Assembly: GCA_049999805.1 (NCBI GenBank)
Contig: JBNGIO010006328.1
Location: forward strand, 93,626 to 156,021
Reading direction: 5' to 3'
DNA length: 62,396 bases
Origin: Folioceros fuciformis
Taxonomy: Eukaryota
The notes below the pieces were generated by a model that did not search any database, was not told the origin of the DNA, and worked only from the letters and a program-made list of their open reading frames with translations. A program made the translations under genes and the position numbers. This document shows positions 9,252-51,450 of this stretch, in pieces (within the stretch, counting starts at the first letter, position 1; every line of letters starts with the position of its first letter).

Positions 9252-12023
9252 TCAATGGTGATCTCCACATGAACAGAACCCGTCCTTGAAGTGATGGACA
9301 CGATGTGCGTCTCTAACGATGATCTCCCGCTGCTCAATTCTTGAGACCATCTTAGTTCCACTATGGCAGTGATCACACATTCTGAGATTCTTCGTAACAA
9401 CAAGAGTTGCACCTTCAGGTGTATTCAAGAGTCCAAAAGCTAAAGCCAGCTTCTCAGCATGTCCACACAGAGGATCCTCCTCCGTCTGGGCAGAGATGGG
9501 CTGTGTCGACAGCATCACATTCCCTACCTCCTCGTCCTCCGTTGGCAGATTCAGACTCCGCAACTTTGCCCCGGTGTCGTCTCTCAGCTCCCCTACCGAA
9601 AATTCGTGCACCTCGTTGTTAACTTCGATTGTGGCCACCGCAAGCTTCTTCTGAAGCCCTGCGCTTCCTCGAAGCTCTTCAATGTGCCAGACATCATCCC
9701 ACCTGCCCGCATTCTCGTAAATTTGTGACATGACTACATACCAGGAAGCCTCTTGAGCTACTGTTTTTGTAAGATGGTCGAAACATCGCCTTCCTAGTTC
9801 TACATGGGCATGTGTTTTGCAGGCACTCAGCAAAGCCATCCAACCCACACTGTCTTGATCAATGAGTGGAGGGGTCTGTAGCATGTACTCCGCTTTCTCC
9901 AACTGCCCCGCTCGGCCCAGAAGATCGACGATGCTAGTGTAGTGCTCGATACCTGGGTTGATGCCGAAATCTTCTACCATTAGTTTGAAATAAACCAAAC
10001 CTTCGTCAACCAGCCCGGCATGACTGCATGCAACAAGAAGGCTTGTGAAAGTTGCGGCATCCGGTGCAACTCCTCCTCGGTGCATCGTGTCAAAGCACTG
10101 GAAGGCCATTGCAGGGTCATTATGCTGACCATAACCGTTGATAAGAGCATTCCAAGCCACTGCATCCTTTTCCGACAAGCTGTTGAAGACAGCGCGGGCA
10201 TCATCCAGGTTCCCACACTTGGCGTACATGTCCATCAAAGTGCTTGCAACAACCAGGTCTGTCTCTAGTCCTTTCTCTAATATCTGAGCATGAATCAGCT
10301 TGCCTTCCTGTACGGCTCCTTTGCTGCCACAGACTTTCAACAAGCTGAGGATAGTAACATTATCAGGTGTCATGCCTTCCCGTTGCATTCTCATGTAGAG
10401 CATCAGGGCTTCCGCAGCAAGCCCACGCTGGGCATATCCTCCAATCATGGCATTCCAACTCACTAGATTCCTCCTGAATGATGTGTCAAACACTGTCCGT
10501 GCAAGTTCCAGATTGTTGCATTTCGCATACATGTCTATTAGGCAGCTGCTGATGCACACATCAGCTGCCAGCCCCAGTTTCACAATCCGATCATGTAGCC
10601 ACTTGCCCTCCTGTAACGCTCCAAGGTCACCGCATACTTTAAGCAAGCTTAAGAATGTCACTCTATCTGGCAAAACGCCAGCCTGTTGCATGCTCCGATA
10701 CAGGTTAATGGCTTCCTGACCACGCCCAAGCTGCGCGTATCCCCCCATCATGGCATTCCACGCCACCACATCTTGTCTAGACAATCTGTCGAACACTTCC
10801 CTGGCTTCATCCAGGCAACCACATTTCGCATAAATGTCCACCAGAGCACTTCCTAGAAACGCATCTGATTCAAGCTGCAGATTCAGAATCTGTGCGTGGA
10901 TCTGCTTCAGCTCATGAATCGCCCCAATACTGGAGCAAGCCTTCAGCATAGCCAGAAATGTGACTCTGTCAGGAACCAAGCTGCTCAGCTGCATCTTCGT
11001 ACAGAGTTCAAGGGCTTCCTTCCCAAGCCCCTGTTGAGCATATCCTGCAATCATGGCGTTCCAAGTCACCACATTCTTGACTGGTAGTTCGTCAAAAACT
11101 CTGCGAGCATCTGATATACTACCACATTTGGCATACATACCTACTAAGCTGCTCCCCACAAGTTTGTGTGTTCCAAGTCCCGCTTCCTTGATATGTGCAT
11201 GAACTTTCTTGCCCTCTTGTAAGGCTCCAACGCTTCCACATGCTTTCAAAACTCCAATAAAAGTCACATGAGTGGGTTGCAATGTGCCCTGCTGCTGCAT
11301 CTCCAAGTACAGCTTAAGGGCTTCATGACCGTGGCCATGCTCAGTATATCCTCCAATCATTGAATTCCAAGTTACTGTGTTTCTAGTTGACAGCCCGTCA
11401 AACACCAAGCGAGCATCCTCTAGGCTCCTGCACTTCACATACATGTCCACTAGAGTGCTTCCCACAAACACATTTGAGCCATACCCATTGTTGACCACAT
11501 CTGCATGAACCGATTTACCAGCAGCCAGATCTGCAGCAAGACCACAAGCTTTCAAGGCAGCGACAAGCAAGAAATCATTTGGTTTCACAACTATCTGTTT
11601 CATTTGCTGATAAAGTTTGATAGCCTCCTCTGGTTGGCCATGCTCATAGTGCGCCACAATTATGGAAGTCCACACATATGGGTCCAATGGAGGAAGCTTG
11701 TTGAACACATGGTTTGCTTCCCAGAGACTGCCTTGGGATGCATACATGCGGATGATGGTGCTCCCCAAAAAGGTGTTCCGCTCATACCCACTTTTAACTG
11801 CAAGAGCATGGGCTTGCCTTCCAACCACCAAATCTTTATAGGCAATGCATCCCTTCACCAGACAATAAAACATGTTTCTGGTCAGTAGATGCCCTTCCTG
11901 GCCCCTGAGCTCCAGCAACCGATAGGCCGCATCCAGCTGACCCTCATCACAAAGATTGGTCCAGGCTTGAAATTCGGCAGACCCCTCACCCCACGCCACC
12001 CTACATTGTTCAAAGAAAAGCAT
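9252..12023 (-). CDS. PLS-class PPR protein with E domains and a variant DYW deaminase domain (HAE...DHH; DYW:KP/DRH-like)
   Basis: 923-aa ORF with P-L-S triplets (VTWNAMIxGYAQ, LVDMYAKCG, TFLSLLKVC), E1/E2 motifs and C-terminus LCGHAEKLALAFGL...KNLRMCDHCH...REIIVRDAHRVHHFKDGFCSCGDHH. An extra upstream exon is possible. Confidence 0.95.
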   Translation of the reverse strand: MLFFEQCRVAWGEGSAEFQAWTNLCDEGQLDAAYRLLELRGQEGHLLTRNMFYCLVKGCIAYKDLVVGRQAHALAVKSGYERNTFLGSTIIRMYASQGSLWEANHVFNKLPPLDPYVWTSIIVAHYEHGQPEEAIKLYQQMKQIVVKPNDFLLVAALKACGLAADLAAGKSVHADVVNNGYGSNVFVGSTLVDMYVKCRSLEDARLVFDGLSTRNTVTWNSMIGGYTEHGHGHEALKLYLEMQQQGTLQPTHVTFIGVLKACGSVGALQEGKKVHAHIKEAGLGTHKLVGSSLVGMYAKCGSISDARRVFDELPVKNVVTWNAMIAGYAQQGLGKEALELCTKMQLSSLVPDRVTFLAMLKACSSIGAIHELKQIHAQILNLQLESDAFLGSALVDIYAKCGCLDEAREVFDRLSRQDVVAWNAMMGGYAQLGRGQEAINLYRSMQQAGVLPDRVTFLSLLKVCGDLGALQEGKWLHDRIVKLGLAADVCISSCLIDMYAKCNNLELARTVFDTSFRRNLVSWNAMIGGYAQRGLAAEALMLYMRMQREGMTPDNVTILSLLKVCGSKGAVQEGKLIHAQILEKGLETDLVVASTLMDMYAKCGNLDDARAVFNSLSEKDAVAWNALINGYGQHNDPAMAFQCFDTMHRGGVAPDAATFTSLLVACSHAGLVDEGLVYFKLMVEDFGINPGIEHYTSIVDLLGRAGQLEKAEYMLQTPPLIDQDSVGWMALLSACKTHAHVELGRRCFDHLTKTVAQEASWYVVMSQIYENAGRWDDVWHIEELRGSAGLQKKLAVATIEVNNEVHEFSVGELRDDTGAKLRSLNLPTEDEEVGNVMLSTQPISAQTEEDPLCGHAEKLALAFGLLNTPEGATLVVTKNLRMCDHCHSGTKMVSRIEQREIIVRDAHRVHHFKDGFCSCGDHH

Positions 12024-22383: not shown

Positions 22384-22905
22384 CTAATTTTGGCCATCAG
22401 GCGGATCAAAATCATTGGGATCTAGAAAGGCTGTCATTCCTCCATCACCCTCAGCATTTCCAATGGAGCATTTGGTATCTCTCTGATCATCAATGGAATA
22501 GGCGATAAAACAAACATCTTTTATGCCCCAAGCAGACCGTTTATGGATGCAATGTTCTTCAAGCAAGCTCTGAGCTAGGATTGGAAGACATGCTTGACAT
22601 TGATCAGGATACAACATATCTGGGTTCCTCATAATACAACCGGCCTTAGCTCTGAAGTAAGAAGGCCATGCATATTCTACTTCGGAAGCATCAGGAAAAC
22701 TTAACACACTTTTCTCGATGACACTATCCACGCCTGCTCTAATCACTAGAATAATTGGGTCCACTGTCCACAAGTCTGCACCACATATATGTTCCACTAT
22801 AAGTCTTCTTCTATTTTGAGCACTAGTTTGTATAGAGAGTAAGAGGAGATAGACCAGTGGTATCATAAGACTTTGCCTTGCACAACTATGAACTCCTATC
22901 TTCAT
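22384..22905 (-). CDS. Secreted single-domain Gnk2/DUF26-like cysteine-rich protein (paralog A)
   Basis: Signal-peptide-like LMIPLVYLLLLSIQTSA, then AGC-x12-C-x2-C...C..KRSAWGIKDVCFIAYS resembling the DUF26 C-terminal half; clear paralog at 23849-24325. The start codon is inferred (the ORF extends to 22965). Confidence 0.7.
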   Translation of the reverse strand: MKIGVHSCARQSLMIPLVYLLLLSIQTSAQNRRRLIVEHICGADLWTVDPIILVIRAGVDSVIEKSVLSFPDASEVEYAWPSYFRAKAGCIMRNPDMLYPDQCQACLPILAQSLLEEHCIHKRSAWGIKDVCFIAYSIDDQRDTKCSIGNAEGDGGMTAFLDPNDFDPPDGQN

Positions 22906-23848
22906 TTTCACAATCAAAATATGCACCCTATAATTTTTTTGTGAAAGAGCATTGATCCGCATCATTTAATTCGACTTGTTGTCAAATCCTACTCACCTTT
23001 TGGTGACCTAAAGTACGAAAAATAAGATGCATGGTGATGAGAATGTGAAGAAGCCTTACATGTCTGAAGATTCTCATTCTAATATTCTAGAATGATATAA
23101 AATTATAATATGAAATTAAAATTATAATATAGATATTCAAATCTAATAGAAACAAAATTGAAAAACAAATCACATCCAAGATTTGGAAGGGTGTGTGAAT
23201 TCTTACAATTTATAAGATCATATAATTGAAATTTTATGAATAAATTAAATTGAAGGATATTCATAAAATTTTAATTATNNNNNNNNNNNNNNNNNNNNNN
23301 NNNNNNNNNNNNNNNNNNNNNNNNNNNNNNNNNNNNNNNNNNNNNNNNNNNNNNNNNNNNNNNNNNNNNNNNNNNNNNGGACTTAGGGTTTAAGATTTAG
23401 GGTTTAAGGTTTGTTGGCTACGTGGTATTTGTTAACCAATTATAAAAGGACAAGGGATTCAACATGTAAACATTTGTAATTGTATTGTTATAATAATCAA
23501 ATGTGATATCTTGGAAAAGAAGAGCTATTTTGAGTTTTCTCATAATATCGCACATAAATATGTGCAAGGATATTTAGGGTTAAGATCAAAAATTCCTTGG
23601 AATATTTTTTTTCTTAAATATGAGACATTGGTATCAATAAGCTATATTTATAAATCGTACATAGAATCGTATAGGAGAACAATGCACATTGGGGTGATTT
23701 AAAAGTATTAATAGGCCTTTTTTTATCATGAGTTGTGTGTATATATTCATCGTATGCTAATATAATTCGATAATTATACTTGATTGATTTTGATGTGAAA
23801 TGTGTGGTGGGACTTACTTGGCTTTGGATTGCAACTTGTAATACGATA

Positions 23849-24325
23849 ATGATATTTTCACGACAACACTTTCGATCCCAGATTTTTGTGATGCTTCTTT
23901 ACCTTAATGGTTGTTCGGAGGCAACATATATAACAATAAGAAGCCGAAGTCTTGAAGAGACTCCTGACATGCAGTACACATGTGGTGAGGATTTGTGGAC
24001 AATTGATCCAATTATTTTCGTCATCAGAACTGGCGTGGAGCTACTTATTGACAATGCAAGTTCAGCTTATCCTTCATCATATTGGTATCAAAATAGATGG
24101 CCGTCTTATTTTAGAGGATACGCTGGATGTACTTATGATCATGCAACATTAACAAACTCCCAAGATTGCTTTGATTGTTTAGAGGCTTTAGCAGCAGCAC
24201 TTCTAGAGAGATTTTGTAAACAAAAACGTGCTGCATATGCTGAGAAAAAAAGTTGTTTTATTCGATATACTATTGATGAACCTGATAAAGACGGTTGTCC
24301 TGTGGGAGGTAATATGAATCTGTAA
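23849..24325 (+). CDS. Secreted single-domain Gnk2/DUF26-like cysteine-rich protein (paralog B)
   Basis: IFVMLLYLNGCSEA signal-like segment; CGEDLWTIDPIIFVIRTGV...WPSYFRGYAGC-x12-CFDCL...C.QKRAAYAEKKSCFIRY aligns with paralog A. Confidence 0.7.
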   Translation: MIFSRQHFRSQIFVMLLYLNGCSEATYITIRSRSLEETPDMQYTCGEDLWTIDPIIFVIRTGVELLIDNASSAYPSSYWYQNRWPSYFRGYAGCTYDHATLTNSQDCFDCLEALAAALLERFCKQKRAAYAEKKSCFIRYTIDEPDKDGCPVGGNMNL

Positions 24326-25222
24326 GGTTGTGTATTTTTTACATATTTTAAGAAATATATTATTATTATTATTATATTAACTATGTATTTAGTGAGAATA
24401 GAATGAAATATTCACAGTAACCATGAAGAGCAAGATGCATGCCTAGTCTTTTCTCCATTCTTGTAGTATCCCACTACAATGTTCTTAGCAATATATAGAG
24501 TTGGAAAAGAATCACAAATTTGTAGGACTATGTTGCAACAAATAATGACAATATGCTGGTATTATTCTTGAAGAAAAGATGTTATTTTGTCACAGGCGTT
24601 GCGGACAATGAAAACAAGATCAATAGAATTGAATAACCATAAACATTTTTAAATTGGATGTATGATTTAAGTAAATAAAACAAATGACTCATTTTGTTGG
24701 GTGCCGGACACGGCAGGTAGGGGAGGCGAGGTTTTGTGTTTGTTTGGAATCAGGACACAAGAAACGTGTTTAATCACCATAGGAAAACACAAGCTGATTA
24801 ACGCGACTACCTGCACATGTGTCCCCAGGTTTGACTGAAGGTCTCGTTGAGGGTGACGCAGGTGAAGCCAAGCGCTATTCGTCACTACAAAGTAATTGAA
24901 GGCACGAAACCCGAAGCGCCAAGTCATCATGGTCGCGTCTTTGTTTGCATCATGTTAAGCGTAAAGTCACCGTGGTGTCCATGATCTGAGCTCTAATAAC
25001 AAAGTACCTGGCCATAACACATGCCGTTCCGGATCACTGTAATCTCACTGCAACGTAACCGTAACTGTTTGTATTCTAGCTGTATATAGCACAAATACCT
25101 TGTGCGAGTTACTTGACAACGCCTTATACCTCTCAACGCGTATCAAGTTACATTGTGTGGTTGCTTGTGTTTTGGGAGGACAGCATAGCAATGCGCACTG
25201 AAAGCAGGCTTCGTAGTGCACA

Positions 25223-25708
25223 ATGAGGATTGAACTCTAAGCGGTGATCGCTCAGTTGGAAGAAGATGAACCTATGCAACTCGATTATGTGCTGCTGTGC
25301 ATTGTTGTTGAGGATTATGATGAAGGCTCACATGTGTATCGAGGGTGTGTTACTTGTTACACAGCGATCTCCCCAAATGGTTGGTGCAAAAAGTGTAAGG
25401 AAGTTGTAAGTGGCAAGCTACATTATTGTTTACGAGTGCTACTTGCAGATTCAAGTTCCAAGACATGGGCAACCGCTTTTGCAGCCGGAAGGGATTTTAT
25501 GAGGTTGACTCCAGAGGAGTTCAGTATGAAAGAAGTGAGAGGAGAAGCCTCAACTTTGCTTAGAAGGTTGCAAGTAAGGCATTTCTTTTGCCTCTTCTCC
25601 ATTAAGAGAGCCACTGCTCACCACCCTGCAAGCGTTATTATTTTACGAGTTGATGCAATGTATGTGCAGGACTTGTTTCAACCATTTCAGAGCTATGGAG
25701 CACACTAG
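25223..25708 (+). CDS. Stand-alone RPA1 (RPA70) C-terminal OB-fold/zinc-ribbon domain inside the MULE
   Basis: DYV...YRGCVTC...WCKKC...HYCLRVLLADSSSKTWATAF...RHFFCLFSIK matches the RPA70 DBD-C pattern (DY..YxAC..C..CEKC..ILxVxIAD....WVTCF..RSFIFRVRVK). The ATG at 25223 is followed by an in-frame TAA at codon 6; the next ATG is at 25274. Confidence 0.75.
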
Positions 25709-26029
25709 CTAGACCACACCTAGGAAAACCATGTTGTGCTAACAGCCCAAGAACACCAAGCATTGAAGGTCTGTCCTTAGGTGTCCTGGACACGGCCATA
25801 CCCACATATTCTCATGCAAACATGAATTTACAACTAGCAAACAAGCCTTTGTCATTGTCTGCTACTCTTGTTATTTGCTCCTACTTATCCATAGTAGGGG
25901 CTATAGTGATAATGTCCTTCCCAACTACCACCCTTACCACTATTTCTCTCATACTTTGCCTTGCAAGCATTGCATTGTGCTGGCTTTTGTAAGACTTCCC
26001 CATGTTCTGTATTTGAAAAAGGAAAGATG

Positions 26030-26280
26030 TGGCTTAAAGTGGAAGCGTCTTTTGTCCATCCATGTAATAACAAAAATGGTATATGTACACACATTCATGA
26101 TTCTAGCAAGCAATAATGAAAACTACCTAGTTCGATATACCAATGCCAAATTTATGGCTTAAAGTGGAAGCATCTTTGTGGTTATCCATGTAATCACAAA
26201 ATAGTATATGTACACACATTCATGATTCCAGCTAGCAATAATGAAAACTACTTATTACGATATACGAATGCCAAATCTAA
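26030..26280. repeat. Two-copy ~125-bp tandem duplication inside the MULE
   Basis: tggcttaaagtggaagc...gtatatgtacacacattcatgatt...aataatgaaaactac...atgccaaat occurs twice, between the 3' ends of the two internal genes. Confidence 0.85.
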
Positions 26281-26346
26281 TAGAAACTATGCTTCAGGTT
26301 TGTATGTTCCAGAAGCTATATGCTGCATGAATGATCGCTCCTTCTT

Positions 26347-28720
26347 CTACTCAAAAAGCTTCCAACTACTTTTCGTTTCCCAAAATGCAAGCTTTCTTTT
26401 TGAGCTGTTATCAGAATTGGTAGGATCAACCAAGGTAGGAAGTGTAGGCAACATGGTCTTTGCTTCTGCCTCTGCTCTCAATCCCTTTAGCTGCCTAATC
26501 AATTGTTGGAATAAAGCTGCTGCATGTTGTTGCAAAAAAGGCCACTTTTGTAACATGGTTGTTAATTGTTGGCACAGACTTTCCATGTTTGGAGTCACAT
26601 CTACTAATTGGCCTATTGCTTGTGTGCATGAATGGTCCACTATGTGCAAGAAGATAGATGCACCTTGCCTTGCAACTACAATCCCTTTGTTATGACAGAG
26701 AAAGTTTTTCTAGAAGTCTATGCTTGCATCTTCAGTAATCAACATGCCACGTTGTTGATAATGTGTTTGAGCTTGGGCAACCTTGGAGTACCTGGCAAGT
26801 AACTTGTGAGTGGGGACTACATTGTCCATTGCCATCATGAAGCCTCTTGTCCCACGCTTGTATGTGCAATAACCCCATTGTGTTCCCGCACCACTCATAG
26901 TATATATGAACACACTTCCATGATCCTGACTTTGCACATAAGCAAGGCTAGGAGATACTATGTTGGGCAACAATACATCACTATCTGCAATGCACAAAGC
27001 CTTTGGAAAGGCGCTCTTTACTATTTGCTCCTACTTTGAGTTCCTAAGCATGCCAGCTCCTTTACATTGTGCTACTTACCAAAAATGTTTGTTCACTTCC
27101 TCAAACAAAATGTACAGAAGCTAGTCTAAACGCCGACTATGTAGGGTTTTTTTGGATAGCAAGCATCTGTACTTCAAAAGCTTGTGGTATGCCTCAATAG
27201 ATGAGTTGCAATCTTGTCCTCCATGTGGCATTGTACGCATAGCTTTAATCCACTGATGCATGTTACAACCCCACTGGTCCCTAAAGTACTTAACAAAGCT
27301 AGGAGCATGCTCACAAAAGATAGAAGTGTACCAATTTTTCTCTGTAAGCTTGCTTCACATCGACACTCTCATCAAAGTCCATATGCATAATGTCACCCAA
27401 GCACTTCATAATGGCTTGTCTTATGTGGGGTTCCTTTACTTTTTTCAGCAGCTGCCATAAACAGGCTCTCCTAAAATGCCACAAGCATAAAAAGATTTGC
27501 ATAGATGTTCCAAACACACCTTGGATGGCATTGATTTCTGCCATACAATCATCTACAAGAAAAGGAGTGGGCTGCCATGTAGACTGATGTTGTACCATCT
27601 TCTTATGCAAGCAATGCCACCACTATGAAATAGCATATGATGCGGCCTTACTTGTGACAACCCAAGCCACAAGAATGCCATTGAAGTGGTCATCAAATAC
27701 CAAAACTGTGAAGAGCTCGAACTTCCATTTGTTGGTGCCAAATGTGGCATCCATAGCAATGATCAAGTTGTGACCCCAACAGAGCACTGTCTGCATTTGA
27801 AATCACTCTGGATGCCTAGCGTGAAGTTTGTGGCATGGTCTTTTGTTCCTAGTAGTGGATAAAATACTTCAAATCTATGGATATCCATCCATAACTTAAC
27901 ACTCACCTCATCTTGTGCATGGAAACGTCACGCTCTGGCATCAAGTTCAGCTTATAAATTCCTAATGTCACTAGGAAGGAGAAATCATCTCTCTGAAAGC
28001 GCTACTTGTGGATCACCTTGCTTTCGTAAGAAAACATCAGACTCATGATCTTTCATGATCTTAAAAGCTGATGTCTTGCACAACAACTTGTACTCCACCC
28101 ATTCCTTTTTGGCCACATATAAATAAGGAGCCCGAATGCAATTTGGACTTGAGTTGATGGTAAGCGCTCCATGACAATATTGCCCTATGGAATCGATGTG
28201 GTGTGTTTCATGTAATCGTAATTCAGGTACATCAGGGAACATTTCAAGTTGGCTAACAAACACAAAAAATTGGCATCCACGCTTCTTACTCTCACCACAC
28301 ATCACCTTAGAGCGCCTACTGCCATCACTTGTCTTTGGTTTGTTAGTGAGATCGCACAAATGTATGATTCTATGAAATTGTATTTTTGGGAACCAAAAGC
28401 ACAACTGAATTTCATGTAATGGCAAGGGGTGGTTGGAGAGATTGCATTTTGCCAGATGCTTGACTGTGTCCACACGTCCACCCTTACCAACTTCATTAGA
28501 AAGAATTTTGATGCCTCCTCCCCAACGATGAAATCTGCATATCTTCCTCATGTAATGTAACAAGTTTAGATGGGACTAACTTTCTTCCCGAATGTGTGCA
28601 TAACATCTTGCCATTCCATGTTTCCTTTCAGAAAGGTCCTAGGCAAGGAGTTTCCACAATGAAAGGGCCCGTTCGTGGCTGAACGAGAACATCTGCATTT
28701 CCACACCCAACTTCCATCAT
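26347..28720 (-). pseudogene. Degenerate MULE transposase (DDE core plus SWIM remnant)
   Basis: Fragments broken by stops and frameshifts: RYADFIVGEE, SKKRGCQFFV...HIDSIGQYCHG, AMDATFGTNKWKFELFTVLVFDDHFNGILVAW, FLVDDCMAEINAIQGVFG...LCLWHFRRA and GYCT. Confidence 0.85.
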
Positions 28721-30532
28721 GATCTTTGGAATCTAGAGACAACCCGATGGTTCAAGTTCACCCGATGGAAGCACTCAATTGTGCACGCCGCTTGGGTGTG
28801 CACGTTGCTTCAGACGCAGTTCGGAATAGCAACATATACGGGATGCCTTGCATTTGTGGCTTAGAACATTTGAAAGGTAGTTGTGGTGTCTCCTCTCCAA
28901 ATTTCCGTGCCGTAGATGTATACAGCTAGAATACAGACAGTTACGGTTACGCTGCAGTGAGATTACAATGATCCGGGACGGCATGCATTACGGCCAGGCA
29001 CTCTGTCTTTAGAGCTCAGATTATGGACACGGTGACTTTGCGCTTAGCATGATGCAAACAAAGACATGACCATGACGACCTGGCCCTTCGGGTTTCGTGC
29101 CCTCAATTACTTTGTAGTGGCGAAAAGCGCCTGGCTGGTGAAGCAGACAAACGTGCTGATTAGAAAGTTTGTTAGCCTCATGTTTCAGAAAACTTCTCTG
29201 AGGAGACGCAGGGAATTTTCATTGAAGGAGACCAGAAGACCAGAACTAGACTCATTTGATCAGACTTCTTTGATGGCTGAGGAAAGGCAAGTACCCTGAG
29301 CTTGTCAACAAGGGCTTGCTTATGCCTTACGTCTGTCCCTACTGGTGTGAGCCAACGAGGCCCGTGTTGACCGAGGTGACAGGAAGGTAAAAAGTGCTTT
29401 TCTCACAGTAGTGGTCTCTGAAAGGTCCATTTACACGTGCAGAATGGAGCACAGCGACAGTGAGGATGAACCTTCCCTTCATTACGGCAGGCTTCAAAAC
29501 AACCAAATCAGGTGAGGAATACGGGGACAGAATACCTTTCGTCAAGTGGCCTGGTGTTCGCAGAAGAGTTGTCACCTGTGCCATATACAACATATTTGAC
29601 ATGAAGGTCAGGCGGTCAGTTTCAGGATGAGAACTCTTCCTTTACCTGTTCAAGCGGAAGGCTGCTGCTCCTTCCAACCAGGCCGGCCTCAGAATGGAGG
29701 ATCAAACAAATCAATCACACTCTGCCACTGGCACTGCCACCACTTGCAGCTCCCCTCCAGGACAGTTGGACAGGCCCATTGATCAGAAGACCCAACTATC
29801 ACAAGAAAATCACAATGTAGTCATCCAACATCCTTCAGGAGAGTCAAACAGGTTAAAAAACAACAGCTACACGTAGGATAACATGGAGCATCAAGATGAT
29901 AAGGGTTGGGTGTCAACACTGAGATCCAGAACGGCACAACAGAAAGAAAGGTACAAGAAAGATCAACTGCTTGTATATTCGCTGCCTGAATTATGAACTA
30001 TTATTATTTAGCCAGATTCCAGCATTACATTTCCGACAGTTCGGCAACCCCTCAAAACATATGGTTGTGAAAGAAATACGAATGGAAACCTCTAGAGTGC
30101 TAAGGGATTCCAGTTGGGAGGATTTCGCACACTTACAGCACGACCCAGCTCTTGTGAGACAGACTCTTCTCACACTCTTCAAAACCATCTACAGCGCACA
30201 CGTCTGAGAGGAAATTGAGTCTATTAAACTACGGTCGTAGGTAAATTCACTACTGGGGCGTTTGAATGAGCAGGACAAAGACCTCCACTTTCTTCCCTCG
30301 TAAATTCCTCTTCATAAAAGTTGCTGTTTCCAGATCCAAACTCCACTCTTCAGACTCTGACTCCTCTTTTTCATATTTCTCCTTCCTGAAATAATTGATT
30401 TCAAAAGTTCTGCATCATTACTTCCTCCACTGCTTTCTTCTTTGTCCGCTTTTAAGTTTGAGCATTCGAGTAAGTGTTTTGCACTAAGCCAGCAGTAGCA
30501 GAGACACCTTACCTCAAGCACAACTCTTTGCA

Positions 30533-31998
30533 TCAAGCACGAAGAGTGTGCTCTCTCAACTCGGTTTCTCCATGTGCAAAATGGCAACGCTCCCCATAGG
30601 CGCAAGTTCCCTGCGAATAGTTTTCACAGATCTTGGTCTTGAAGTGGTGGGGGCCAGATCCTGTAGGCTTAGCAGGCATAGCATCCCTGTTCATGAGGAC
30701 TTGCCTGACCATAGAACTAGCCTGCTGTATCTGCTCAAAAGACCCTTCCATCTCAACGTTTCTCAGGTTAGGATCAGACTCGTGGTCTCGGATCGATAGT
30801 TTGGCTCCTGTTTGCCGACATATATTCTTTGCATTTACTCCACATTTACCAATAATGGCCCCAGCAAAGGATGCCTCAATGCTGATCTTTGCGGTGGACA
30901 AGGCCCCAAATGATGCAGCAGCTGCCAATCCAGGGGGAGTTGGCTCTCTATAAGACACACCTCCCCTGTACCCACGTCCCAGACTATCCCGGAATCCCCC
31001 ATACCTACTCTCTGATGGATACAATGATGGTGAAGTGCGATAACTACTACCTGAAATAGAGGGGGCAGCAAGTCGTTCCCTAGATAACTCCAGGGAGGTG
31101 TAGCCGGGATACAAATCCCGGTCACTTAAGAGAGAGGAGACTCCACCTGATTTTCGAAGCTCTCGCTCACCATGAGCAAAATGACATTTATCTCCATAAC
31201 GACAACCCTCAGATGTGTCGTATCGATTGCAAAGCCTTGTTTTAAAGCCTCCTAGGTTAGCCCCTTGATCTGGTGACAGGTCAGCTGACAAAGGAGGCCC
31301 AGACGGACCAACTCCCGTCATGGACTTCCTCACGCTCCCTCCTGCCAGAGCAGCTGACCCAGGGCTTAAACCATACGACGAAACACCTCCCGGCAAATAG
31401 TGCAGAAAATGGCACCCTTCCCCATAGGGACAACCGGATGTACTGCAACACCCCTCCCCATGGTCACTATGAGGATCCCAGACAGAACTATCTGGCATTC
31501 ATCATACAGTAAGGTTAGGTGGCACTCAATACCTGAAAAATTTAGTGCAAGGTTTCGTCCTGTTCGAAGCGTTCCCACCACCTCCCATATCCTTATCCTT
31601 ATCTGATGAGCCACATGTGCAAATCACCATTACTCAAAAACAGAACCTCTGGCATGCATCGTCTGCCAGAGACGAAACTTCAACTAAGCCCGTCATCTTC
31701 CAAGTTACAAGTAGAAAAAGACAGCTTGCTGACAGGAAAAAACATCAGCAGCGGCACCCTCTTCTACCATGATAGATTGCAGCACAATCACCCTCGCCCC
31801 ATTCCCGACGCAACAATCAGAAACACACCAGACTAAAAACAAAGATGCAAGCACCAACAACACATAAAAATCGTCAAACCAATCACCTTCGATGTATCTT
31901 CTTAGCTCCAAATCATTGGATGAATAAACATTGCCATTGGTACTCGAACCGATCACATCCCCCCTCGGCCTCTTGCGGGGAGGCCCGTAAGGGTCCAT
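30533..31998 (-). CDS. CCCH zinc-finger/KH-domain RNA-binding protein (KHZ-like), multi-exon
   Basis: TKPCTKFF|STSGCPYGEGCHFLH, FKTRLCNRY..GCRYGDKCHFAHG, KH domain AKISIEASFAGAIIGKCGVNAKNICRQTGAKLSIRD, and a third CCCH FKTKICENYSQGTCAYGERCHFAHG; ATG MDPYGPPRKRPR at 31998. Confidence 0.93.
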
Positions 31999-41079: not shown

Positions 41080-44000
41080 TGATAGTAAGTATATATCTAA
41101 CTAACTATCAGTTAGAGCACAGGTCCTAGGTTAGGTTTAGCTGACGGTTAATAACCGTTTGTCGCGTGCATGTGACACCGACCGTGTAAGACATTCAACA
41201 CAATGCTATCAGCTTCCGCCTACTCGTGCCCCTCGCGTGATCTTAGACTTGTCATGGTATCAGAGCAGGAATCTTTTTGATTCATGATCTGGTCCAAGCG
41301 ATTACGCTCATGCTATGCCTGGAATTTTTTGCATTCTTGTGAGAAGTTCCTTTGTTGACGCCTAGCGTTTACAGCGCAGTCTACTCTTCTTGATTCCCTA
41401 TCTACTCTGCGAGGTAGCAATGCATTGTTGGCTCTTTTACAAGATCTGAGCGCTGCAGTCCGAGTTGCGCCGCTGTTACAAGTGCGTTCAGGCGTTTCCC
41501 TCCTGGACAATGTTAGTAGCAGTAGCACAAGGTCAGCAACCATGCCTGGTTTTAGAAAGCGCCAACGATTAGCAAGAAGAGCACAACGATTGCATGAATT
41601 GCGTGACTGGGACACAACGAGTGAGGAAGCTTACATGCGGACCCTCGCCCCCACACGCTGGGAACAAGTATGGATTAAAGTTTGCATAATCCTTGATCTC
41701 ATGGCAACAAATGTCGTCCAAGGTTCTCCTGCATTAGATGGTGATGACTGGAGCAGCGTCAACGTCTCTGACCTTGTTTGACTAAAATGCTGCTCCCCTC
41801 CAGTAAGGAAGTCCTTCATTTGCATTTTCCAATAACAGCAGGAGAAGCGTGGTTGCACTTGCACTATCATGTAACGAAATTATTTTCCAGAGCACAAGCA
41901 CAAGAGCCCTTGTACATTCTAAGGCAGTATACTTCCCATATTTTGTTCAGAATCCAAACTGAACATGCTCTGGATATGCCCTGCAAGTTGAAGGTGGCCC
42001 TAGAAGTTTGTGAAGAGCAAAACGCATCACCATCCTGCAAAGCAAACTGGCTGTTAGTGCAGCCCTAAGCTATCCTATCTACCATGGCTCAAACAGCAGG
42101 CTACCCCTACTACACCTGCAATCAGCATCCCCAAAGAAGATAAATTCGATGGGGAGAATTACCATGTCTGGAAAAAGAGCATGGAGGAGATTCTTAAGTC
42201 CAGAAAACTCTAGGCTTACGTACATGGCACTGGCACACCTCTTGTGCCAACACCAAGGCCTGGTGCAACTGCTACGCCAGAAGAAGTTGCCCAATGGGAT
42301 GAGGCAGACCAACTGGCGAGGACCCCACTGCATTTTAGTGTGCGGAGCAGTCACACCGGTGTTTTCCAAGGAGCTGAGGAGAACGCCGCAGCCTGGTGGA
42401 TACAAGTCAATATACTGTACGACTCTAGAGATCTCATGCTGCAAACTTTTGTTCTTAAACAATTTATGAGCCTAAAAATGAAGGAATCCGACCCAGTGGA
42501 CAAACATGTCCTCGACTTTCGAAATGCGAGAGCAAAGATGGTGTCGGCAGGATTTAACCTTGAGGAGGAGCTACTTGCTTGCGTTCTCCTAAACATACTG
42601 CCAGAAACATGGACAAGTGTTGTCCAAGGTTTACAAGATGTAAGACCCCATCTCAGTAAATCGGGTCATAGCTGCAATGCTCACAGAGGAGTCGAGGAGA
42701 AAGATTGCACATACCACTTTGTCTACTGCAGGAGACAGAGCTCTTTGGACTAGCAGGCTTGGTAGAGGCCGGGGACGTGGGCGTCCCTTCACGAGAGGCA
42801 GGGGCAGAGGTAGAGGCATGCCCCCTAGGCCTCAAGGATTTAGCACAGGCAAATCCAAACCCCCATGTGGGTTCTGTGGCATGACTAACCATACTTGGGA
42901 AGTATGCCGTAAGCGTCTTGGATAAGAAGGCGGTTAGTCAGGGCACTTGGCAATGACTATGCAGAAGTACTCATGAGCGTTCAGTACCATTGTGGTCCCA
43001 GTAGCGAATGTGGCTCTCGGAGATGATCATAGCTTCCCTTTGTGTAACGTCGCCACATGCTTTGCCAGCCATTCGGAGCACACTTGGTACATTGACAGTG
43101 GGGCTTCGCAGCATATGACCCCTCACGCTGCCTACTTTACCGACATCAAGGAGAGTAGCCCTGCAAAATACGTTTGTTTAGGAGACAATTCTCAGCATCC
43201 TATTCAAGGACAAGGCACAATTCAGCTTGACTTGCGACCAAACCAGCACTTGGAAATTCCAGACGTCCTTTATGTGCCTGGCCTTGCTAAGAACCTTGTT
43301 TCTGTCAGAAAGATAGATTAGTCAGGATGCTATGTCTGTTTTGGTGAGGGGAGATGCATTGTCAAGACCAAAGAGGGTACACTCTTAGCAACTGGCCACC
43401 TGAAGGAGGACGACTTGTATCATCTTGATATGAAGGCTGAGCAAGCATATGCTGCTACCCCTAGTGCACATTTTGCACATCCCTCATTGACGTACCTGTG
43501 GCATCTCCGCTTGGGTCACGTCAACTTCAACAAGCTCGTCAACATGTACAAGGATCAGCTCATTGACGGCATTTAGCTTGACATCCTCCAGGATTTCGGG
43601 GTCTGCGAAGCATGTGTCCTAGGCAAACACAAGCAGGCGCCGTTCCCTATAGGGCAAGCAACCAGAGCCACAACCGCATTAGAGCTCGTACATACAAATG
43701 TGTGTGGCAAACTGCCAACTTCATTAGGAGGCAAGGAGTACTTTACCACCTTCATAGATGATTACACTCGATTTTGTGTAGTATACTTCCTGAAGTATAA
43801 GTCGGAGACTTTTGCTTGCTTTGTGGAGTACAAAGCCTGGGCTGAAACCCAAACTGGCCACCGTCTGAAAGCTATAAGATCTGACAATGGAGGTGAATAC
43901 CTATCTGGCGAGGTTGTTTCTTTCTGCAAGACCCACGGCATTAGCAAGCAATAGACAAATGCACACACACCCCAACAGAATGGGGTTTCGGAGAACAAAA

Positions 44001-46789
44001 ATCAGTCACTGGAGACCTCTGCATCCAGTATGCTGCACTATGCAAACTTGCCTAAGTGCTATTGGGCCGAAGCAGTGGCCTATGCAGCATATATCCAGAA
44101 CCGCATTGCCCACAAATCGGTGAAGGGCAAGACACCTTACGAGCTGTGGACAGGACGTAAGCCGAACCTCTCATATCTTCGGGTGTTTGGATCCACAGTC
44201 TACGCTCAGGTGCATAAGGATCTGCGGAAGAAATTCGAGCCTAAGTCAACTTCATCTATTTTTGTTGGCTTCACCGAGGTCATCAAAGGTTATAAAATCT
44301 TGGACAAGCGGACACGAAGAATTACCCATACACGGGATGTTGTGTTCGTGGAAGGAGTGGAGTCCCAGCAGCCAGTGGGAGCTCCCCCTGAATTGTCCGA
44401 TTCGGATGCTGACTCCGCAGGAGAGGCGGAGGAGATCATGGTCGGACAACTCCCAGTGCCTCTTCCTGTTGCGCCAGCTGCACATCTGCAGCAACCTGCA
44501 CATCAGCAGCATATAGTACCTCAGCATCAAACAGTCCAAGGGGCGGCTCCCAGACCACCTGTACCTGCACACTCACCTCATGTCCAAATGCCCCTGAGGA
44601 CTCCCGGCAGGCCTGTGAGCAATAGGAGTCTGTTTGACTCACCATTTGCTGGGTCCCTTAACTTCGAGGAGCCTGAGATCGTCATTCCCTCGGCTCCACC
44701 TGAAGGTCAGCATAGGAGGCATGCAAAACACACTCATCTTGAGCCTCGGCATTCCTCCAGACATCACAAGCCTCCGGATACCTATGTCTCTGAAGATTTC
44801 CGACATTCAAAATCTCATTTGACATACTGTCTAGCAGCCAACACTGTACTGTATGAGCCACCCACATATGAGGATGCATTGAGCTGCCCAGATGCGGAGC
44901 ATTGGCATGCAGCCATACCATCAGAGCTGGCTTCTTTGTACGAAAATAATACATGGACGATTGACAGTCTGCCTGTGGACAGGAAGCAAGTGGGCAGCAA
45001 GTGGGTGTTCAAAATAAAACTCAAGGCTGATGGGAGCATAGCAAGGCACAAAGCCAGAGTTGTAGCCAAGGGGTATTCTCAAATACCTGGTGTGGATTAC
45101 GACGACACATTCAGTCCGGTGGTGAAGCTGACCACCCTACGCATGTTTGTAGCCCTGGCTGCAGTCAACAATCTTGAGTTGGAGCAGCTAGACGTGACCA
45201 CAGCCTTTCTGTATGGGAACCTACAGGAAGAGATTTTTATGCAGGTTCCCCCGGGAGTGCCAATATCTGCAGGCACCCCTCGTCCAGTCTGTCGGCTTCA
45301 GAAAACATTATATGGTTTAAAACAAAGTCCCCGAGCCTGGTTTGAGAGAATAGACACTTACCTGAAGGAGCTCGCGTATGCAAGCCTGCATGTCGACAAC
45401 AATGCATATGTAAAACGGGAAGGCACTGACTTTCTAGCCCTAGCAATTTACGTGGATGATATAATCTTGCTAAGCAGCTCTATGCGCATGATCTATGAAT
45501 TGAAGGAGCAGTTAAGAAGAACTTTCAAAATCACAGAAGCAGGGGCACTTGCCTACTGCTTAGGTATGCAGCTTTAGCGAAACAGAACTGCAGGGACAAT
45601 CTTCTTACACCAACATAAATATGCCCTTCAGATCCTAGCAAGGTACGGAATGTCTGCATTTCCTATTGCTATGCCAGTGGAGCAGAATGTGAAATATACA
45701 CAGCAAATTGGAGACATACCTGAAGAAGACCTGCAATGCATTGAACTGTATCCATCAATGAATGGGAGTGTGATGCACCTGATGATTGGTAGCAGGCCTG
45801 ACCTAGCTTTTTGTTCAGGCCTGACATCTCACTTTGTTTCAAATCCAAACAAGCAGCATGGAGAACTGATGACCAAGGTATATCGCTATATCTCTGCAAC
45901 AGCTGATTGGGGCATCTTGTACAGCTCCAGGGAGAAGGATGCACTACGATTGGTGGTGCACAGTGACGCTGACTGGGCCGGGGACCCAGACAGCCAGAGA
46001 AGTATCTCCAGTTATGTAACTATCTTGGCAGAAGGAGCCATCTCCTGGAGCAGCAGAAAACAGCCCTCGATCGCTCTATCATCAACTGAGGCAGAGTATA
46101 AAAGCTTAACAGAGGCATGTTAGGAGGTTACCTAGTCAGTGGGAGCTTTGACGGAGCTCAGCATCAATCAGCAACTTCCAATCAATCTTCTTTGTGACAA
46201 CTAGAGCGCAATAGCGCTGACTATGAACCCTTGCTTTCATGCGAGATCAAAGCATATCGAAATTGAGCATCACTATATCCGGCAGACTGTAGCTCAAGGT
46301 TTGGTGAGAATTTCATACTGCCCCACTGCTGAAATGACTGCAGACCTATTGACCAAAGCGCTCGGGCGCATCAAGCATTACGAGCACTCGAGCAACATGG
46401 GGCTGCGATCTGCAGGCAAGCCATTGAGCTGGAGCAAGGTGCCGGATCGGCGGATCAGCTGGAGGAACGAAGACTGAAGACCTTTCAAGCTAGTTTTAGG
46501 GTTGACGAGTTTCTTTGCTGGCGTAGAAGTTTCTTTAGTTTAGATAAGCGTTTCTTTAGCTAATAGACCTATAAACGACTATAAACTAACCATCGCTAAC
46601 ACTAAGACCTGAGTGGGAGTGATAGTAAGTATACATCTAACTCACTATCAGTTAGAGCACAGGTCCTAGGTTAGGTTTAGCTGACGGTTAATAACCGTTT
46701 GTCGAGTGCATGTGACACCAACCATGTAAGACATTCAACACAATCAGCTTCCGCCTACTCGTGCCCCTCGCGTGATCTTAGACTTGTGA
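41080..46789 (+). mobile_element. Ty1/Copia LTR retrotransposon (inner, younger) nested in the RT of the outer element; LTRs 41080-41254 and 46620-46789
   Basis: TG...CA 5' LTR; PBS TGGTATCAGAGC at 41255-41266; PPT gagtgggag; TSD ataag/gtaag; the LTRs differ by 6 substitutions plus a 5-bp indel. Confidence 0.96.
42084..46477 (+). pseudogene. Copia gag-pol of the inner element (nonsense-disrupted)
   Basis: KFDGENYHVW gag, CGFCGMTNHTWEVC knuckle, WYIDSGASQHM protease, IRSDNGGEY integrase, LEQLDVTTAFL/YVDD RT and SDADWAGD RNase H; about ten in-frame stops plus frameshifts. Confidence 0.93.
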
Positions 46790-49700
46790 GTAAGTTCCAT
46801 CTCTTCTATTTCTTCTAGTGTCACAAGGCTATCTTCTATAGACACCTTCTCACCTGTAGCTATGGGTGTATTGACGGGTCTGGCTTCTTTAAGGTTGATC
46901 CTGTCGAAGAGTTGGTCTACATAGTACTGCTGGTGGATGAAGAAAGAATGATCTGTGGGATTTCTCTCGAACTAGACGCCTAAAGCATACTTGAGGGGTC
47001 CTATGTCTACGATCTCATACTTCTTGGCTTACAAGTCCTTAACATACTGGATGATTTGGGGACAGCTACCAAAGATGAAATTGTCGTCAACGTATAGAGT
47101 AATGATGACGAAATGCTCCTTCTGCCTAAGGAGATAAACGCTGGGATCAGCAGCTAAAGGTGAGAATCTAGACTTCTTCAAGTACAAGTTTATAGTTTCA
47201 TTCCATACCTGAGCAGATTGTTTGAATCCATAGAGTGATTTCATGAGTTTACAGACCTTTTTGTTGTCCTTGATGTAGCCAGGGTGCTGGAACATGTAAA
47301 TGTCTTTGCTCAACGTACTATATAGGAAAGCAGTTTTTACGTCGACTTAACGGATGTCCGGATGGTAATGAGCTACTAGTGCCAAGAGTATCCTTATAGA
47401 TGTTGATTTCACCACAGGGTTGTAGAGCCGATTTTCTTCACAGTCGAAGCCAGGAACTTGGCTGAAGCCTCTGGCGACTAGCCTTGCCTTGTATCTTGTG
47501 ACTGTCCCGTTTGGATTCAACTTCCTCCTGAATGTCCACTTACAAGATATGGGTTAGCGATCTGGAGGTAAGTCGATCAGTATCCACGTTTTGCTGGCAA
47601 TCTATGAGTCATATTCAAACTTAGCTGCAGCAGTCCATTCTGGGGTCTTGAATGCTTCCTTAATGGACTGAGGAACGTCTTGCATTTAGATTGCCGACAT
47701 TGCTTGATATAAGGCCACATTGACCTGATGAGTATGCTACTGTTGCTGTTGCACGTCCTCTAGAGCTAGAGTCGGGGCAGCGGGAGCAGGAGCTCTGCCT
47801 GTGATTGAGACTCTAGTCCAGTGATAGATATCCTTCCAGCTGGATGGAGGAGGACGATGACAGGTAGACCGTCTACTTGGGGGTTCAACAGGCTCAATAG
47901 GTAAGGGTTGCTCCAATGCAGGATGCTGGTTAGGTTCTGGATGTCAGGTAAGAGAGGTTCTGGGAATTCTTGTTCAAGCTGACCTATGGTGTCTGGTGAT
48001 GGTACTGGTGCAGGTTGTACAGGTGGTGGAGCGGGGACTAGTGGCTGGATGACTGGTGCTTGAGTTGGGGCTGGAGGCATGGCTTGTGGTGAAATCGGAT
48101 GACCTGTTTGGCCTTGCACATCTACATATTCGTAATCTGTTGGGTTATAAGTGTCCCCCTCAAGGTCAGAAAAGGAAGAAGGTGAATAACCGTGAAGACT
48201 GGGAGCGGGGAGAGTTGTTGAGCTGGACACGAATTGTAGATAAGTATGAAGCAAGGTGGCTTCATGGAAATAAACGCTACGGGATAGGGTTACCTGACAA
48301 GTTGATGGATCAATCAGGCGATAGGCCTTAGATTGGTCAGAGTAACCAATAAACAACAGCTTCTTACTTTTGTCGTCCCATTTCTTGCGCAGGTCAACTG
48401 GAATGTGGGCGAATGCTGGGCTGCCGAAAATGCGGAGATGAGATATGCGGGGCTTATGTGCTGTCCAATGCTCATAGGGTGTGACATTTGGAAGCTCCTT
48501 TGTCGGCAGTCTGTTCTTGATATAGTTGGTTGTTGAGATGGCTTCGGCCCAATATCCTTGNNNNNNNNNNNNNNNNNNNNNNNNNNNNNNNNNNNNNNNN
48601 NNNNNNNNNNNNNNNNNNNNNNNNNNNNNNNNNNNNNNNNNNNNNNNNNNNNNNNNNNNNGCCCAATATCCTTGTGTGAAGCCTGCCAGCTTGAGCAACG
48701 ATCGAGATATCTCCAGCAAAGATTTGTTCAGTCTTTCTACAAAAGGGTTTTGTGCTGGTGTGTATCATACTGTCAGCTGCTAGGTGATGCCCTTAGATGT
48801 ACAGTATGCCTGAAAAGAGTGGCTGATGTACTCTCCAGCATTGTCAGTTCTGAGGGTACTGACTGGAAGTCCAGTGTGCCATTCTTCCATGGCAACAAAC
48901 TCCTGAAAGCACTGAAGGCCTTCATCCTTGCGCTTAAGGAAGTATATGTGGCAATATCGACTCCATTCATCTAGAAAAGTAAGAAAATATGAGTGACTGC
49001 CAAAAGAGGATGTGCTCATGGGGTCACAGATGTCCGAATGAACAACTTCAAGCAGGCGTTTGGCTCTCGTAGGTAAGGGATCATTGAATGGTAGCTGGTT
49101 TAGTTTGGTGTACTGACAGATTTCGCAGTATAAATTAGAAGAGAGCTTTGATGGTATTGGGTCTCTGTACATTGTAGGGTTGGATAAGGAATTCAGATAG
49201 TGGGCACTCGTGTGGCCAGCTCGGCAGTGGCAGAGGAGGGAATTTGATTTGGATAGAGACCTAGGGGCTAACTTTTGAGTGTCTACCAGCAGTGAAGTTG
49301 ACTGAATGTTGAGGAGATAAAGATCATTGTATGGGAGACAATGTGCAAGAATAGTTTTAGACGGGTCACTGAATCTGTGAATGAGGCAGTGGTTACTCTG
49401 AAAGGTGATGACAAGGTTGTGTTCAGTAGCTAGCTTTCGAACTGATAGAAGGTTCTTTGTCATGTAGGGGACGTGCAGGACTTCGGTGATGAGGAGGCTT
49501 TCTCCGTTCGACAGCTGTAGTGAGACGTTGCTAGTGCTTGCTACAGCCAGGGCGCTATTGTCTCCTAGGAGGACATGCTGGTCTGCAGGTGAATCGTGGT
49601 AAGATTCGAAAGCTTCTTTGCTACTGCAGATATGCGTAGTTGCTCCAGAGTCCAGGAACCATCTATTTTCATCCGTTCTTGTGAGTATTAAGCATACAGC

Positions 49701-51450
49701 AAGAACAGGAGTTGGGGAATCTGACTTCGTGCAGGTGTAATGTGATTCGTTGCGAGGTGATTTGCCACGAGGTTCGCCAGCAAGCTTCTTTCTGCAATCG
49801 TTTTTCAAGTGCCTAGGAATGCGGCACCAGTTGCACGGGCCCTTTGTCCTGCGATTGGGTAGCTTGTTGCTGCCAAAAAGTGGTTGCATGGAGGGCCTTC
49901 GTGCCTGAAAGTTACCGCGGCCGCCACCTCTCCTGGCGCCACGTCCTCTTAATGTGAAGAGTGCATGAGTGCTGGATGGACCTGCCTTGTGGCTCATGGA
50001 TTTGCTGGATTCCTCCTCAAAAAGAGATGCAACCACCTTAGTAAATGTGTAAGTGGATTACTAACCTCCTGCCGTTGCAAGGGTTGCCGCACGAATTGTT
50101 GAATTCTGCACACTAATAAATGTCTTGTATGCAGGCGGTAGAGAGGTTAGAAGGGCTAATGTGGCTTGATGTTTGGAGATAATGGTACCTCTTAAGGCTA
50201 GCTTTGCTCTGAGGGATCGGAACACATTCACATGTTGTTCGACCGTATCCAAGTCTTTCATTCTAAGTGAATAAAACTGTCTTGTTGTATTGATTAGGGA
50301 CATGCTACTTTGGGCTTGAAACATGTCTTTGAAAGTCCTCCAGATGGCATTGGAAGTGGCTTCCCCACTTGTGTGGTGCATCATACTCTTGTCAATGGAA
50401 GAAATCATGATGCTACGGGCAAGCTTGTCCTTCTTGGTCCACTGCAACCTAATCAGAAGTTGCAGGGGGATTGGATGTGGTGGAAGGTTGGGCGACAGTA
50501 CCATCGACTATCCCCATGAGGTCATGCTCCTCTAGCAGCGCAGTGATGCGCATTTGCTAGGTGTCGTAGTCGCTTCCTGTGAAGCGGTCTCGATCTCTAA
50601 ACTCTACCTTGGTTGTATTTAGAATTTGAGCCATGGGCGTACGCTGTGCAAGATAGGTGAGTTTCTTAGCAAGCAACTTGGTTGTATGCTGACCTAGTGG
50701 GTTGAAATGAGTCATTCGCCTACTCAGAGTGCATCTGATTCGTTGTTTGTGTTTGTTGGAGATAGCCACAAGAAGTGCCTCCATCTGCGATTTGATTAGC
50801 ACTAACTGACTCTTAAGGTAATCCTTGGAGGAGGTCGAGGGATTACGGAACATTGGAGAGGTCTCGCTGCTGCGGTGTGTAGGTAGGATCGTCCCTCTAT
50901 GAATTCTTGATGGGCCTCTAACTTCGGGTGGAGGACTTGATTGGCTGACGAAGGTGTCTACGCATCAGGTGTAGGTGCGTTTCGGTGGTGTTACTGGTCT
51001 TGGGTAGCGGGGCTGCGTGATAGCGATCCTTCTTGGAGAATTTCTGCTCGAGGATTAGCTGGCTGGGGCTCGGCACCGAGTCAAGGTAGAAGACTTAGGA
51101 TCGTTGAAGGTTGCCGCCGTTGCTCCGGGTGCACGCCATGTCGGGTGGCTGTGGAAAGCCAAGCGCGAGGCGTATGTGCGAAGCCAAATGGGGCGTGACT
51201 CCTCTACTCTGATACCATAAAGTGGGGCGCAAGTCCTGAGGAAAGGATGATTTTCATTGATGAAATGGGCATATTTATACATGTATTGATTGCAGTTATA
51301 ATTGCTCTCATTATAATAACTAGTCCAATAATCGTTAAGGTTAAGTGTAGTGATTTCCATCTACCACGTTCTAGTTGTGATTAAAACCTACACATGTGAA
51401 CCGTGCCCTAAACGACGCTCCCAGTGTAGTCGGCGTACAAGGTCACAACA

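Follow-up and report, generated by a model that had tools for sequence, protein, structure and literature searches.

A decayed Mutator-like element of a land plant with a predicted RPA70 DBD-C-like reading frame opposite its transposase remnant

The Mutator transposon MuDR of maize carries two genes, mudrA and mudrB, which are convergent and read inward from the terminal inverted repeats (TIRs). According to the available part of PMC12973397, MURB binds the N-terminus of MURA, and in term searches of one available, possibly truncated file of the supplementary domain table from the same source, which covers 1846 active plant Mutator-like element (MULE) clusters, Rep_fac and DUF223 each returned 0 entries and REPA_OB_2 had one entry under accessory proteins and one under transposases. 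RPA-like genes are described from another class of plant transposon. The accessible portion of PMC4683698 reports plant Helitron RPAs (PHRPAs) from monocots and dicots only, with a length of ~470 aa, ~8 exons and several single-stranded DNA (ssDNA)-binding domains; these proteins are ~21% identical among themselves and fall outside the core RPA clade. Here we describe a MULE at positions 24868–29134 of a 62,396-nt stretch of Folioceros fuciformis DNA (contig JBNGIO010006328.1, hereafter the window), in which a frame predicted to encode an RPA-like domain stands opposite the remnant of a transposase. Literature searches, judged mostly by titles and abstracts, brought up no account of an RPA-like gene in a MULE, and the main text of PMC3627910 contained no RPA term. 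Such a second gene in a MULE is apparently unreported, while MULE accessory genes and transposon-borne RPAs are themselves already known.

The element and its two reading frames

The element is an inactive copy of a multi-copy MULE family. Self-comparison of the window revealed inverted-repeat arms at 24866–25086 and 28919–29136 that are 89–90% complementary over two collinear blocks, and blastn measured the TIRs at 219 bp with 88.1% identity. The arms are bordered by a 9-bp target site duplication (TSD), CAGGTGAAG on the left and CTGGTGAAG on the right, whose copies agree at 8 of 9 positions; the chance of such a match at one fixed register is about 1e-4. Since the TSD copies flank exactly positions 24868 and 29134, we took these as the ends of the element. 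For a view of other copies we used two public DNA contig runs, X1 and X2, which derive from one sample of the same organism and contain 41% of the element's sampled words. Contigs were aligned on 22800–31200 at a likeness of at least 80%. Three X1 contigs lose their match right before 24868 and continue into unlike flanks, so that the left end is exact to the base, and both junctions of the insertion are bridged by contigs with 0 differences. Long TIRs, a TSD of 9 bp, the typical length within the 8–11 bp range of MULEs, and a family with the same termini at different loci are three features of MULE/MuDR membership seen here. Within the window itself, blastn returned no other copy of the element. 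The left and right flanks have observed-to-expected CpG ratios of 0.75 and 0.49, and the element has a ratio of 0.44.

The minus strand carries the transposase remnant. The frame at 27623–27802 matched positions 1–40 of the Pfam MULE profile (PF10551; E 1.6e-4, 22.4 bits), and the frame at 27311–27622, also on the minus strand, matched positions 46–96 of the same profile (E 1.4e-3, 19.4 bits). Each half lies below the 27.6-bit cut-off because an in-frame stop divides the domain; taken together, the two matches are consistent, at the level of sequence, with membership of the MULE transposases. The first of the two frames also matched ZSWIM1-3_RNaseH-like (E 9.4e-5), and a weak IS256 match in the transposase is in line with the superfamily. 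The N-terminal piece of the transposase is a 196-codon frame at 27985–28575 containing a C..C...H.H pattern, which we take to resemble the N-terminal zinc fingers of MULEs. This frame had no family match, no relatives in the protein search and no usable neighbour in the ESM Atlas, and in the C-terminal part of the transposase no SWIM zinc finger was matched by Pfam at E <= 1. According to a stop map, the path from 28575 to 26350 is broken by 8 in-frame stops as well as by 2 or more frameshifts, and no transposase can be encoded by this copy. In contigs of other copies an additional A follows 27799 and would unite the two frames.

The plus strand carries the second frame, which is open from 25241 to a TAG at 25706–25708, starts 155 bp inside the left TIR and reads inward. 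Two in-frame ATGs, at 25223 and 25274, are separated by a TAA at 25238. When the translation of 25241–25708 was compared with Pfam, it matched Rep_fac-A_C (PF08646) at 28.0 bits (E 2.1e-6); the shorter translation begun at ATG 25274 scored 28.3 bits. Residues 24–122 were aligned to profile positions 9–117 of 146; the whole match lies in one frame and requires no intron, and the last 33 residues of the open reading frame (ORF) fall outside it. Among the element's 12 distinct ORF pieces, only this frame matched Rep_fac-A_C. TIGR00617 (rpa1), the NCBIfam profile for the whole of RPA1, gave a weak match (E 0.016) at positions 469–535 of 608, which correspond to the zinc-ribbon part of DBD-C. The top neighbour in the ESM Atlas, a streptophyte cluster of 167-aa proteins named "Replication factor-A C terminal domain-containing", scored 0.96 with 209 of 256 features in common, on a scale where shuffled proteins attain 0.95 about once in 100; 16 of the 30 hits belonged to the Rep_fac-A_C set. 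Four cysteines, C36, C39, C49 and C52 (C-x2-C-x9-C-x2-C), lie inside the matched stretch at the position of the DBD-C zinc ribbon, and the stretch LLADSSSKTWATAF can be read directly in the translation. Because Pfam, TIGR00617, the ESM Atlas and the cysteines agree, we accept that 25241–25708 probably encodes a domain of the Rep_fac-A_C type. The initial annotation had described a TIR-bounded, TSD-flanked element, with a transposase reading in from the right TIR in a convergent two-gene layout and an intronless ORF bearing the C4 zinc ribbon of RPA1 DBD-C. These three points were borne out by the repeats, the TSD and the exact left terminus, by the minus-strand MULE matches opposite the plus-strand ORF, and by the profile match, the cysteines and the directly read stretch.

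We then asked how the RPA-like ORF is related to known proteins. A phmmer search of 1.84 billion protein representatives returned nothing at E <= 0.001, and word-indexed protein searches returned nothing at near lengths and nothing at longer lengths even at E <= 1. The PDB sequence search gave a chance-level match only (E 0.25, to a designed TIM barrel). Scans of metagenomes were negative for the ORF and likewise for a 24-letter TIR pattern. Had the ORF been a recent copy of RPA1, a conserved plant RPA1 would have matched; since no similar protein was found among the 1.84 billion, the ORF is unlikely to have been captured from host RPA1 in recent times, its divergence from every known RPA protein appearing too great for such an origin. 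We infer from this strong divergence, together with a frame that has stayed open across the domain, that the sequence may have been under long coding constraint, be it within a transposon or in a different gene that evolves rapidly.

The RPA-like frame across the family and its possible origin

Alignment to the element and its flanks recruited 581 contigs from X1 and 650 from X2. Sorted by identity, the X1 contigs comprised 106 at >=99%, 180 at 95–99%, 188 at 90–95% and 107 at <90%. The summed contig depth was 0–10.1 (X1) and 0.62–11.5 (X2) in 14 flank bins, against 86–248 (X1) and 96–378 (X2) in the 14 bins lying fully within the element; this quantity is not a copy number and can be interpreted only as tens of diverged copies. 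The bins of the RPA-like ORF reached depths of 184–231 (X1) and 293–371 (X2), on a level with those of the TIR bins, and the middle of the transposase reached 86–117 (X1) and 96–164 (X2), about half the depth of the ORF bins. Position 25359 within the ORF is covered by 8 different contigs in X1 and 19 in X2, and position 25575 by 13 and 8, respectively. Since the ORF occurs in many distinct contigs, it is not private to the copy at 24868–29134 but is a feature of the repeated family. A further run, X4, which we guess to be RNA, yielded 7 aligned contigs, none of them on the RPA-like ORF, and is uninformative about its expression. One of these contigs (186 nt, depth 2.5) lies on 27727–27892 with 14 differences and thus comes from another copy.

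These observations describe a MULE family with a convergent two-gene layout in which a second gene of Rep_fac-A_C type is present in many copies. Our best overall reading, on which the sequence evidence leaves us evenly balanced, is that this is a family-level second gene for an ssDNA-binding accessory protein encoded by the element. In intact master copies, the RPA-like protein would serve as an ssDNA-binding accessory factor, from a gene in the position of mudrB. Excision of a MULE would leave a double-strand gap, to be closed after resection by repair from the sister chromatid, and an OB-fold (oligonucleotide/oligosaccharide-binding fold) protein could coat and protect the ssDNA, either at the excised ends or while the donor copy is being restored by gap repair. 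Such protection would favour reinsertion or a gain in copies. The protein might act via the transposase, as MURB does in binding the N-terminus of MURA (PMC12973397, available part), or alternatively via host RPA32/RPA14 through the predicted trimerisation surface of DBD-C. A stronger form of this proposal holds that a MULE lineage maintains, under selection, its own miniature RPA, a stand-alone DBD-C zinc-ribbon OB fold that binds the ssDNA of excision and gap repair or joins RPA32/RPA14, and that it was recruited independently of, and convergently with, the RPAs of Helitrons. We hold this stronger form to be unlikely.

Several results weigh against the reading of the ORF as an accessory gene. 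The transposase path contains about 10 disruptions in 2226 bp (0.0045 per bp), a rate at which 1.9–2.2 disruptions would be expected in the RPA-like ORF, and the probability of finding none is 0.12–0.14. If the ORF starts at ATG 25223, so that the TAA at 25238 is counted, the probability of at most one disruption is 0.36, and a conservative count of disruptions gives probabilities of 0.19–0.48 for the intactness of the ORF. The initial annotation had stated that the ORF is far less decayed than the transposase; with P at ~0.12–0.36, this difference is not significant. This copy differs from all or nearly all other contigs at two non-synonymous positions in the ORF (25359, Tyr here and Phe elsewhere; 25575, Val here and Gly elsewhere) and at one synonymous position (25480), a pattern in keeping with this copy having decayed neutrally and silent about the family. 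No contig was seen to join the ORF to the transposase in another copy. Moreover, the ORF adjoins the TIR and would be kept passively by derivatives with internal deletions, and its high depth is therefore no sign of selection. Other copies carry deletions that break the ORF, with joints at 25608>25733 and 25646>26107, and 3 contigs in X1 and 4 in X2 from other copies have an additional C after 25678. The latter change would pass the reading into a frame open to 25990, giving ~250 codons if these copies are otherwise alike, possibly the ancestral form of the ORF; this extension (25678–25990) is hydrophobic and matched no Pfam family. With regard to the domain itself, the Rep_fac-A_C score falls 0.2–0.5 bits short of the Pfam gathering cut-off of 28.5 bits, and two single-sequence AlphaFold2 models had pLDDT (predicted local distance difference test) values of 37.9 and 37.8, which make them unusable for an OB fold. 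Of the OB-fold domain that the initial annotation had expected, the profile part was recovered, at 28.0–28.3 bits and so just under the cut-off, but the structural part was not (pLDDT 38).

The main rival explanation is an amplified passenger. An ancestral autonomous MULE would have taken up an RPA-like fragment or retrocopy, from a diverged host paralogue or from another transposon such as a Helitron, and this cargo would then have been multiplied in the manner of a Pack-MULE without having any function. We regard this as a real possibility, although short of probable. Gene capture by MULEs is common according to the available parts of PMC5861414 and PMC4858842, the ORF represents a single RPA70 domain scoring below threshold, the passive persistence of TIR-proximal segments in deletion derivatives suffices to explain the depth profile, and the ORF-breaking changes in several copies and the non-significant intactness of the ORF here are also what a passenger would display. 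Against it, the domain is complete from its first strand, intronless and directed inward from the TIR with an ATG of its own, and a frame of 155 codons would be expected to have closed after long neutral drift. In addition, the lack of any phmmer-similar protein among the 1.84 billion representatives indicates that the source was not a conserved host RPA1 taken recently. Two outcomes that the initial annotation had named as telling against an accessory gene, an ORF confined to this copy and near-identity to a host RPA1, were not what we observed: up to 19 distinct contigs cover one ORF position, and nothing near-identical was found in the protein libraries searched.

Two further explanations carry much less weight with us. 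The segment with the ORF could belong to another repeat, for instance a Helitron with an RPA-like gene, that was inserted into one sub-lineage of the MULE, in which case the observed depth would be that of the other repeat. RPA-like genes of plant transposons are indeed known from Helitrons (PMC4683698, in the portion available), and the left 1.3 kb (25048–26171) has about twice the depth of the transposase middle. However, there is no step in depth from the left TIR to the ORF, the TIR bin standing at 115 with 64% of the bin in the element, against 184–248 in the adjoining bins, and none of the 12 scanned ORF pieces matched a Rep/helicase family. In a contig from another copy, 25058 within the TIR is linked to 25139, a short way upstream of the ORF, although the shorter side of this joint, with 26 letters, is below the 31-letter bar for bridging, and the plant Helitron RPAs described in the accessible portion of PMC4683698 are ~470 aa long, multi-exon and multi-domain. 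A nested insertion is thus very improbable in our judgement. Still a little more improbable is that 155 codons stayed open by accident in decayed transposon DNA and matched the profile spuriously. The same element does have other frames of 112–196 codons without any family, the score is under the Pfam cut-off and the structure models are poor, but E 2e-6 still amounts to ~1e-4 once corrected for the region's 55 frames of >=50 aa, the ESM Atlas score of 0.96 and the TIGR00617 match at the corresponding RPA1 positions concur, and the four cysteines are correctly placed.

Feature coordinates and surroundings of the element

The features of the element are listed in Table 1. The spacer between its two genes contains a tandem duplication of 125 bp at 26030–26279, with units 88–90% alike, and one X2 contig from another copy has a different repeat junction there.

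Table 1. Features of the MULE copy, in window coordinates
Feature	Positions	Strand	Basis
Left TSD copy CAGGTGAAG	24859..24867		8/9 match to right copy
Left TIR, ~219 bp	24868..25086	+	88–90% complementary to right arm; contigs of other copies end at 24867/24868
First in-frame ATG, closed by TAA at 25238; untranslated leader or defunct start	25223..25240	+	Sequence
155-codon frame (144 codons from ATG 25274), probable stand-alone Rep_fac-A_C / RPA70 DBD-C-like	25241..25708	+	Profile matches
Spacer between the convergent genes	25709..26346		Frames without Pfam family
MULE transposase remnant	26350..28575	-	Pfam MULE halves, stop map
Right TIR	28919..29134	-	Complementary to left arm
Right TSD copy CTGGTGAAG	29135..29143		8/9 match to left copy

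The window is nuclear DNA, from a land plant as judged by its PPR-DYW gene; it has 48% G+C and includes 600 N in six assembly gaps. The gene in question, at 9255–12023 (-), encodes an intronless PPR protein of 923 aa with an E motif and a DYW deaminase domain. It ends in ...CSCGDHH, the usual ending of DYW proteins being ...CSCGDYW. Directly to the left of the element lie two similar, divergent cysteine-rich frames, 22387–22965 (-) and 23774–24322 (+), one of which gave a weak match, below cut-off, to Pfam Stress-antifung (DUF26-type, E 1.9e-4). Farther to the right, at 43955–46123 (+) and 47766–50507 (-), two Copia-type retrotransposon coding regions stand in opposite orientation; one of them matched RVT_2 with E 8e-62, and the region at 47766–50507 is broken by a 100-N assembly gap.

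On its right side the MULE adjoins a CCCH/KH zinc-finger gene, with a coding frame at 30536–31498 (-) matching Pfam zf-CCCH and KH_1. A contig of 1441 nt from run X4 matches 28947–30387 with 0 differences, and a second contig splices 30384 to 30512, which defines a 127-nt intron with GT..AG on the minus strand. The transcript of this gene seems to extend ~1.6 kb beyond the stop codon, reaching 188 nt into the right TIR of the MULE before it ends, and the element may supply the 3' end of the gene. Over 22800–31200, run X3, which shares its sample with X1 and X2, differs nearly exclusively by C>T (226) and G>A (293) changes, and looks like a bisulfite-type library.

Comparison with described transposons

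RPA-like genes have been regarded as characteristic of Helitrons, which generate long single strands through rolling-circle transposition. Should a cut-and-paste family with a DDE transposase also keep an RPA-like gene, the handling of ssDNA would be a recurrent need of DNA transposons, with end resection, hairpin resolution and synthesis-dependent gap repair as the likely stages at which it arises. The family would also offer a tractable second example, beside MURB, of how a MULE accessory protein acts, and it would bear on the origin of transposon RPAs, since Helitron RPAs are reported only from flowering plants in the available portion of PMC4683698. If the ORF is merely an amplified capture, it represents ordinary Pack-MULE-like biology.

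Like the PHRPAs, the predicted protein is a transposon-borne and fast-evolving homologue of RPA70. The carriers differ: PHRPAs reside in rolling-circle Helitrons with a Rep/helicase, whereas the element described here is a cut-and-paste MULE with a single intronless DBD-C-like domain of 144–155 aa. In this respect, no Rep/helicase was matched in the 12 ORF pieces scanned, and TIRs and a TSD delimit the element. The likeness to DBD-C of host RPA70 lies in the matches to Rep_fac-A_C and to positions 469–535 of TIGR00617 and in the four-cysteine zinc ribbon within an OB fold, which here is predicted. By contrast, the ORF is a stand-alone frame in which the N-terminal, A and B domains of host RPA70 are missing; it has no detectable pairwise similarity to any RPA1 in the libraries searched, and its cysteine spacing is C-x2-C-x9-C-x2-C.

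Like a Pack-MULE, the element has a host-like coding fragment enclosed by MULE TIRs. Pack-MULEs are non-autonomous, and the host gene pieces in them can be recognised and often contain introns, whereas this element also carries a transposase remnant and the protein libraries searched yielded no recognisable donor of its ORF. The closest agreement in layout is with maize MuDR, with which the element shares TIRs of ~0.2 kb, a 9-bp TSD, two convergent inward genes, a MULE DDE transposase and the occurrence of deletion derivatives. The second gene here is RPA70 DBD-C-like and probably differs in kind from MURB; in position and orientation it resembles mudrB. The VANB and VANC genes of VANDAL elements and the ULP1 protease gene of KI-MULEs are likewise lineage-specific second ORFs of MULEs, whose accessory proteins are diverse according to the available part of PMC12973397.

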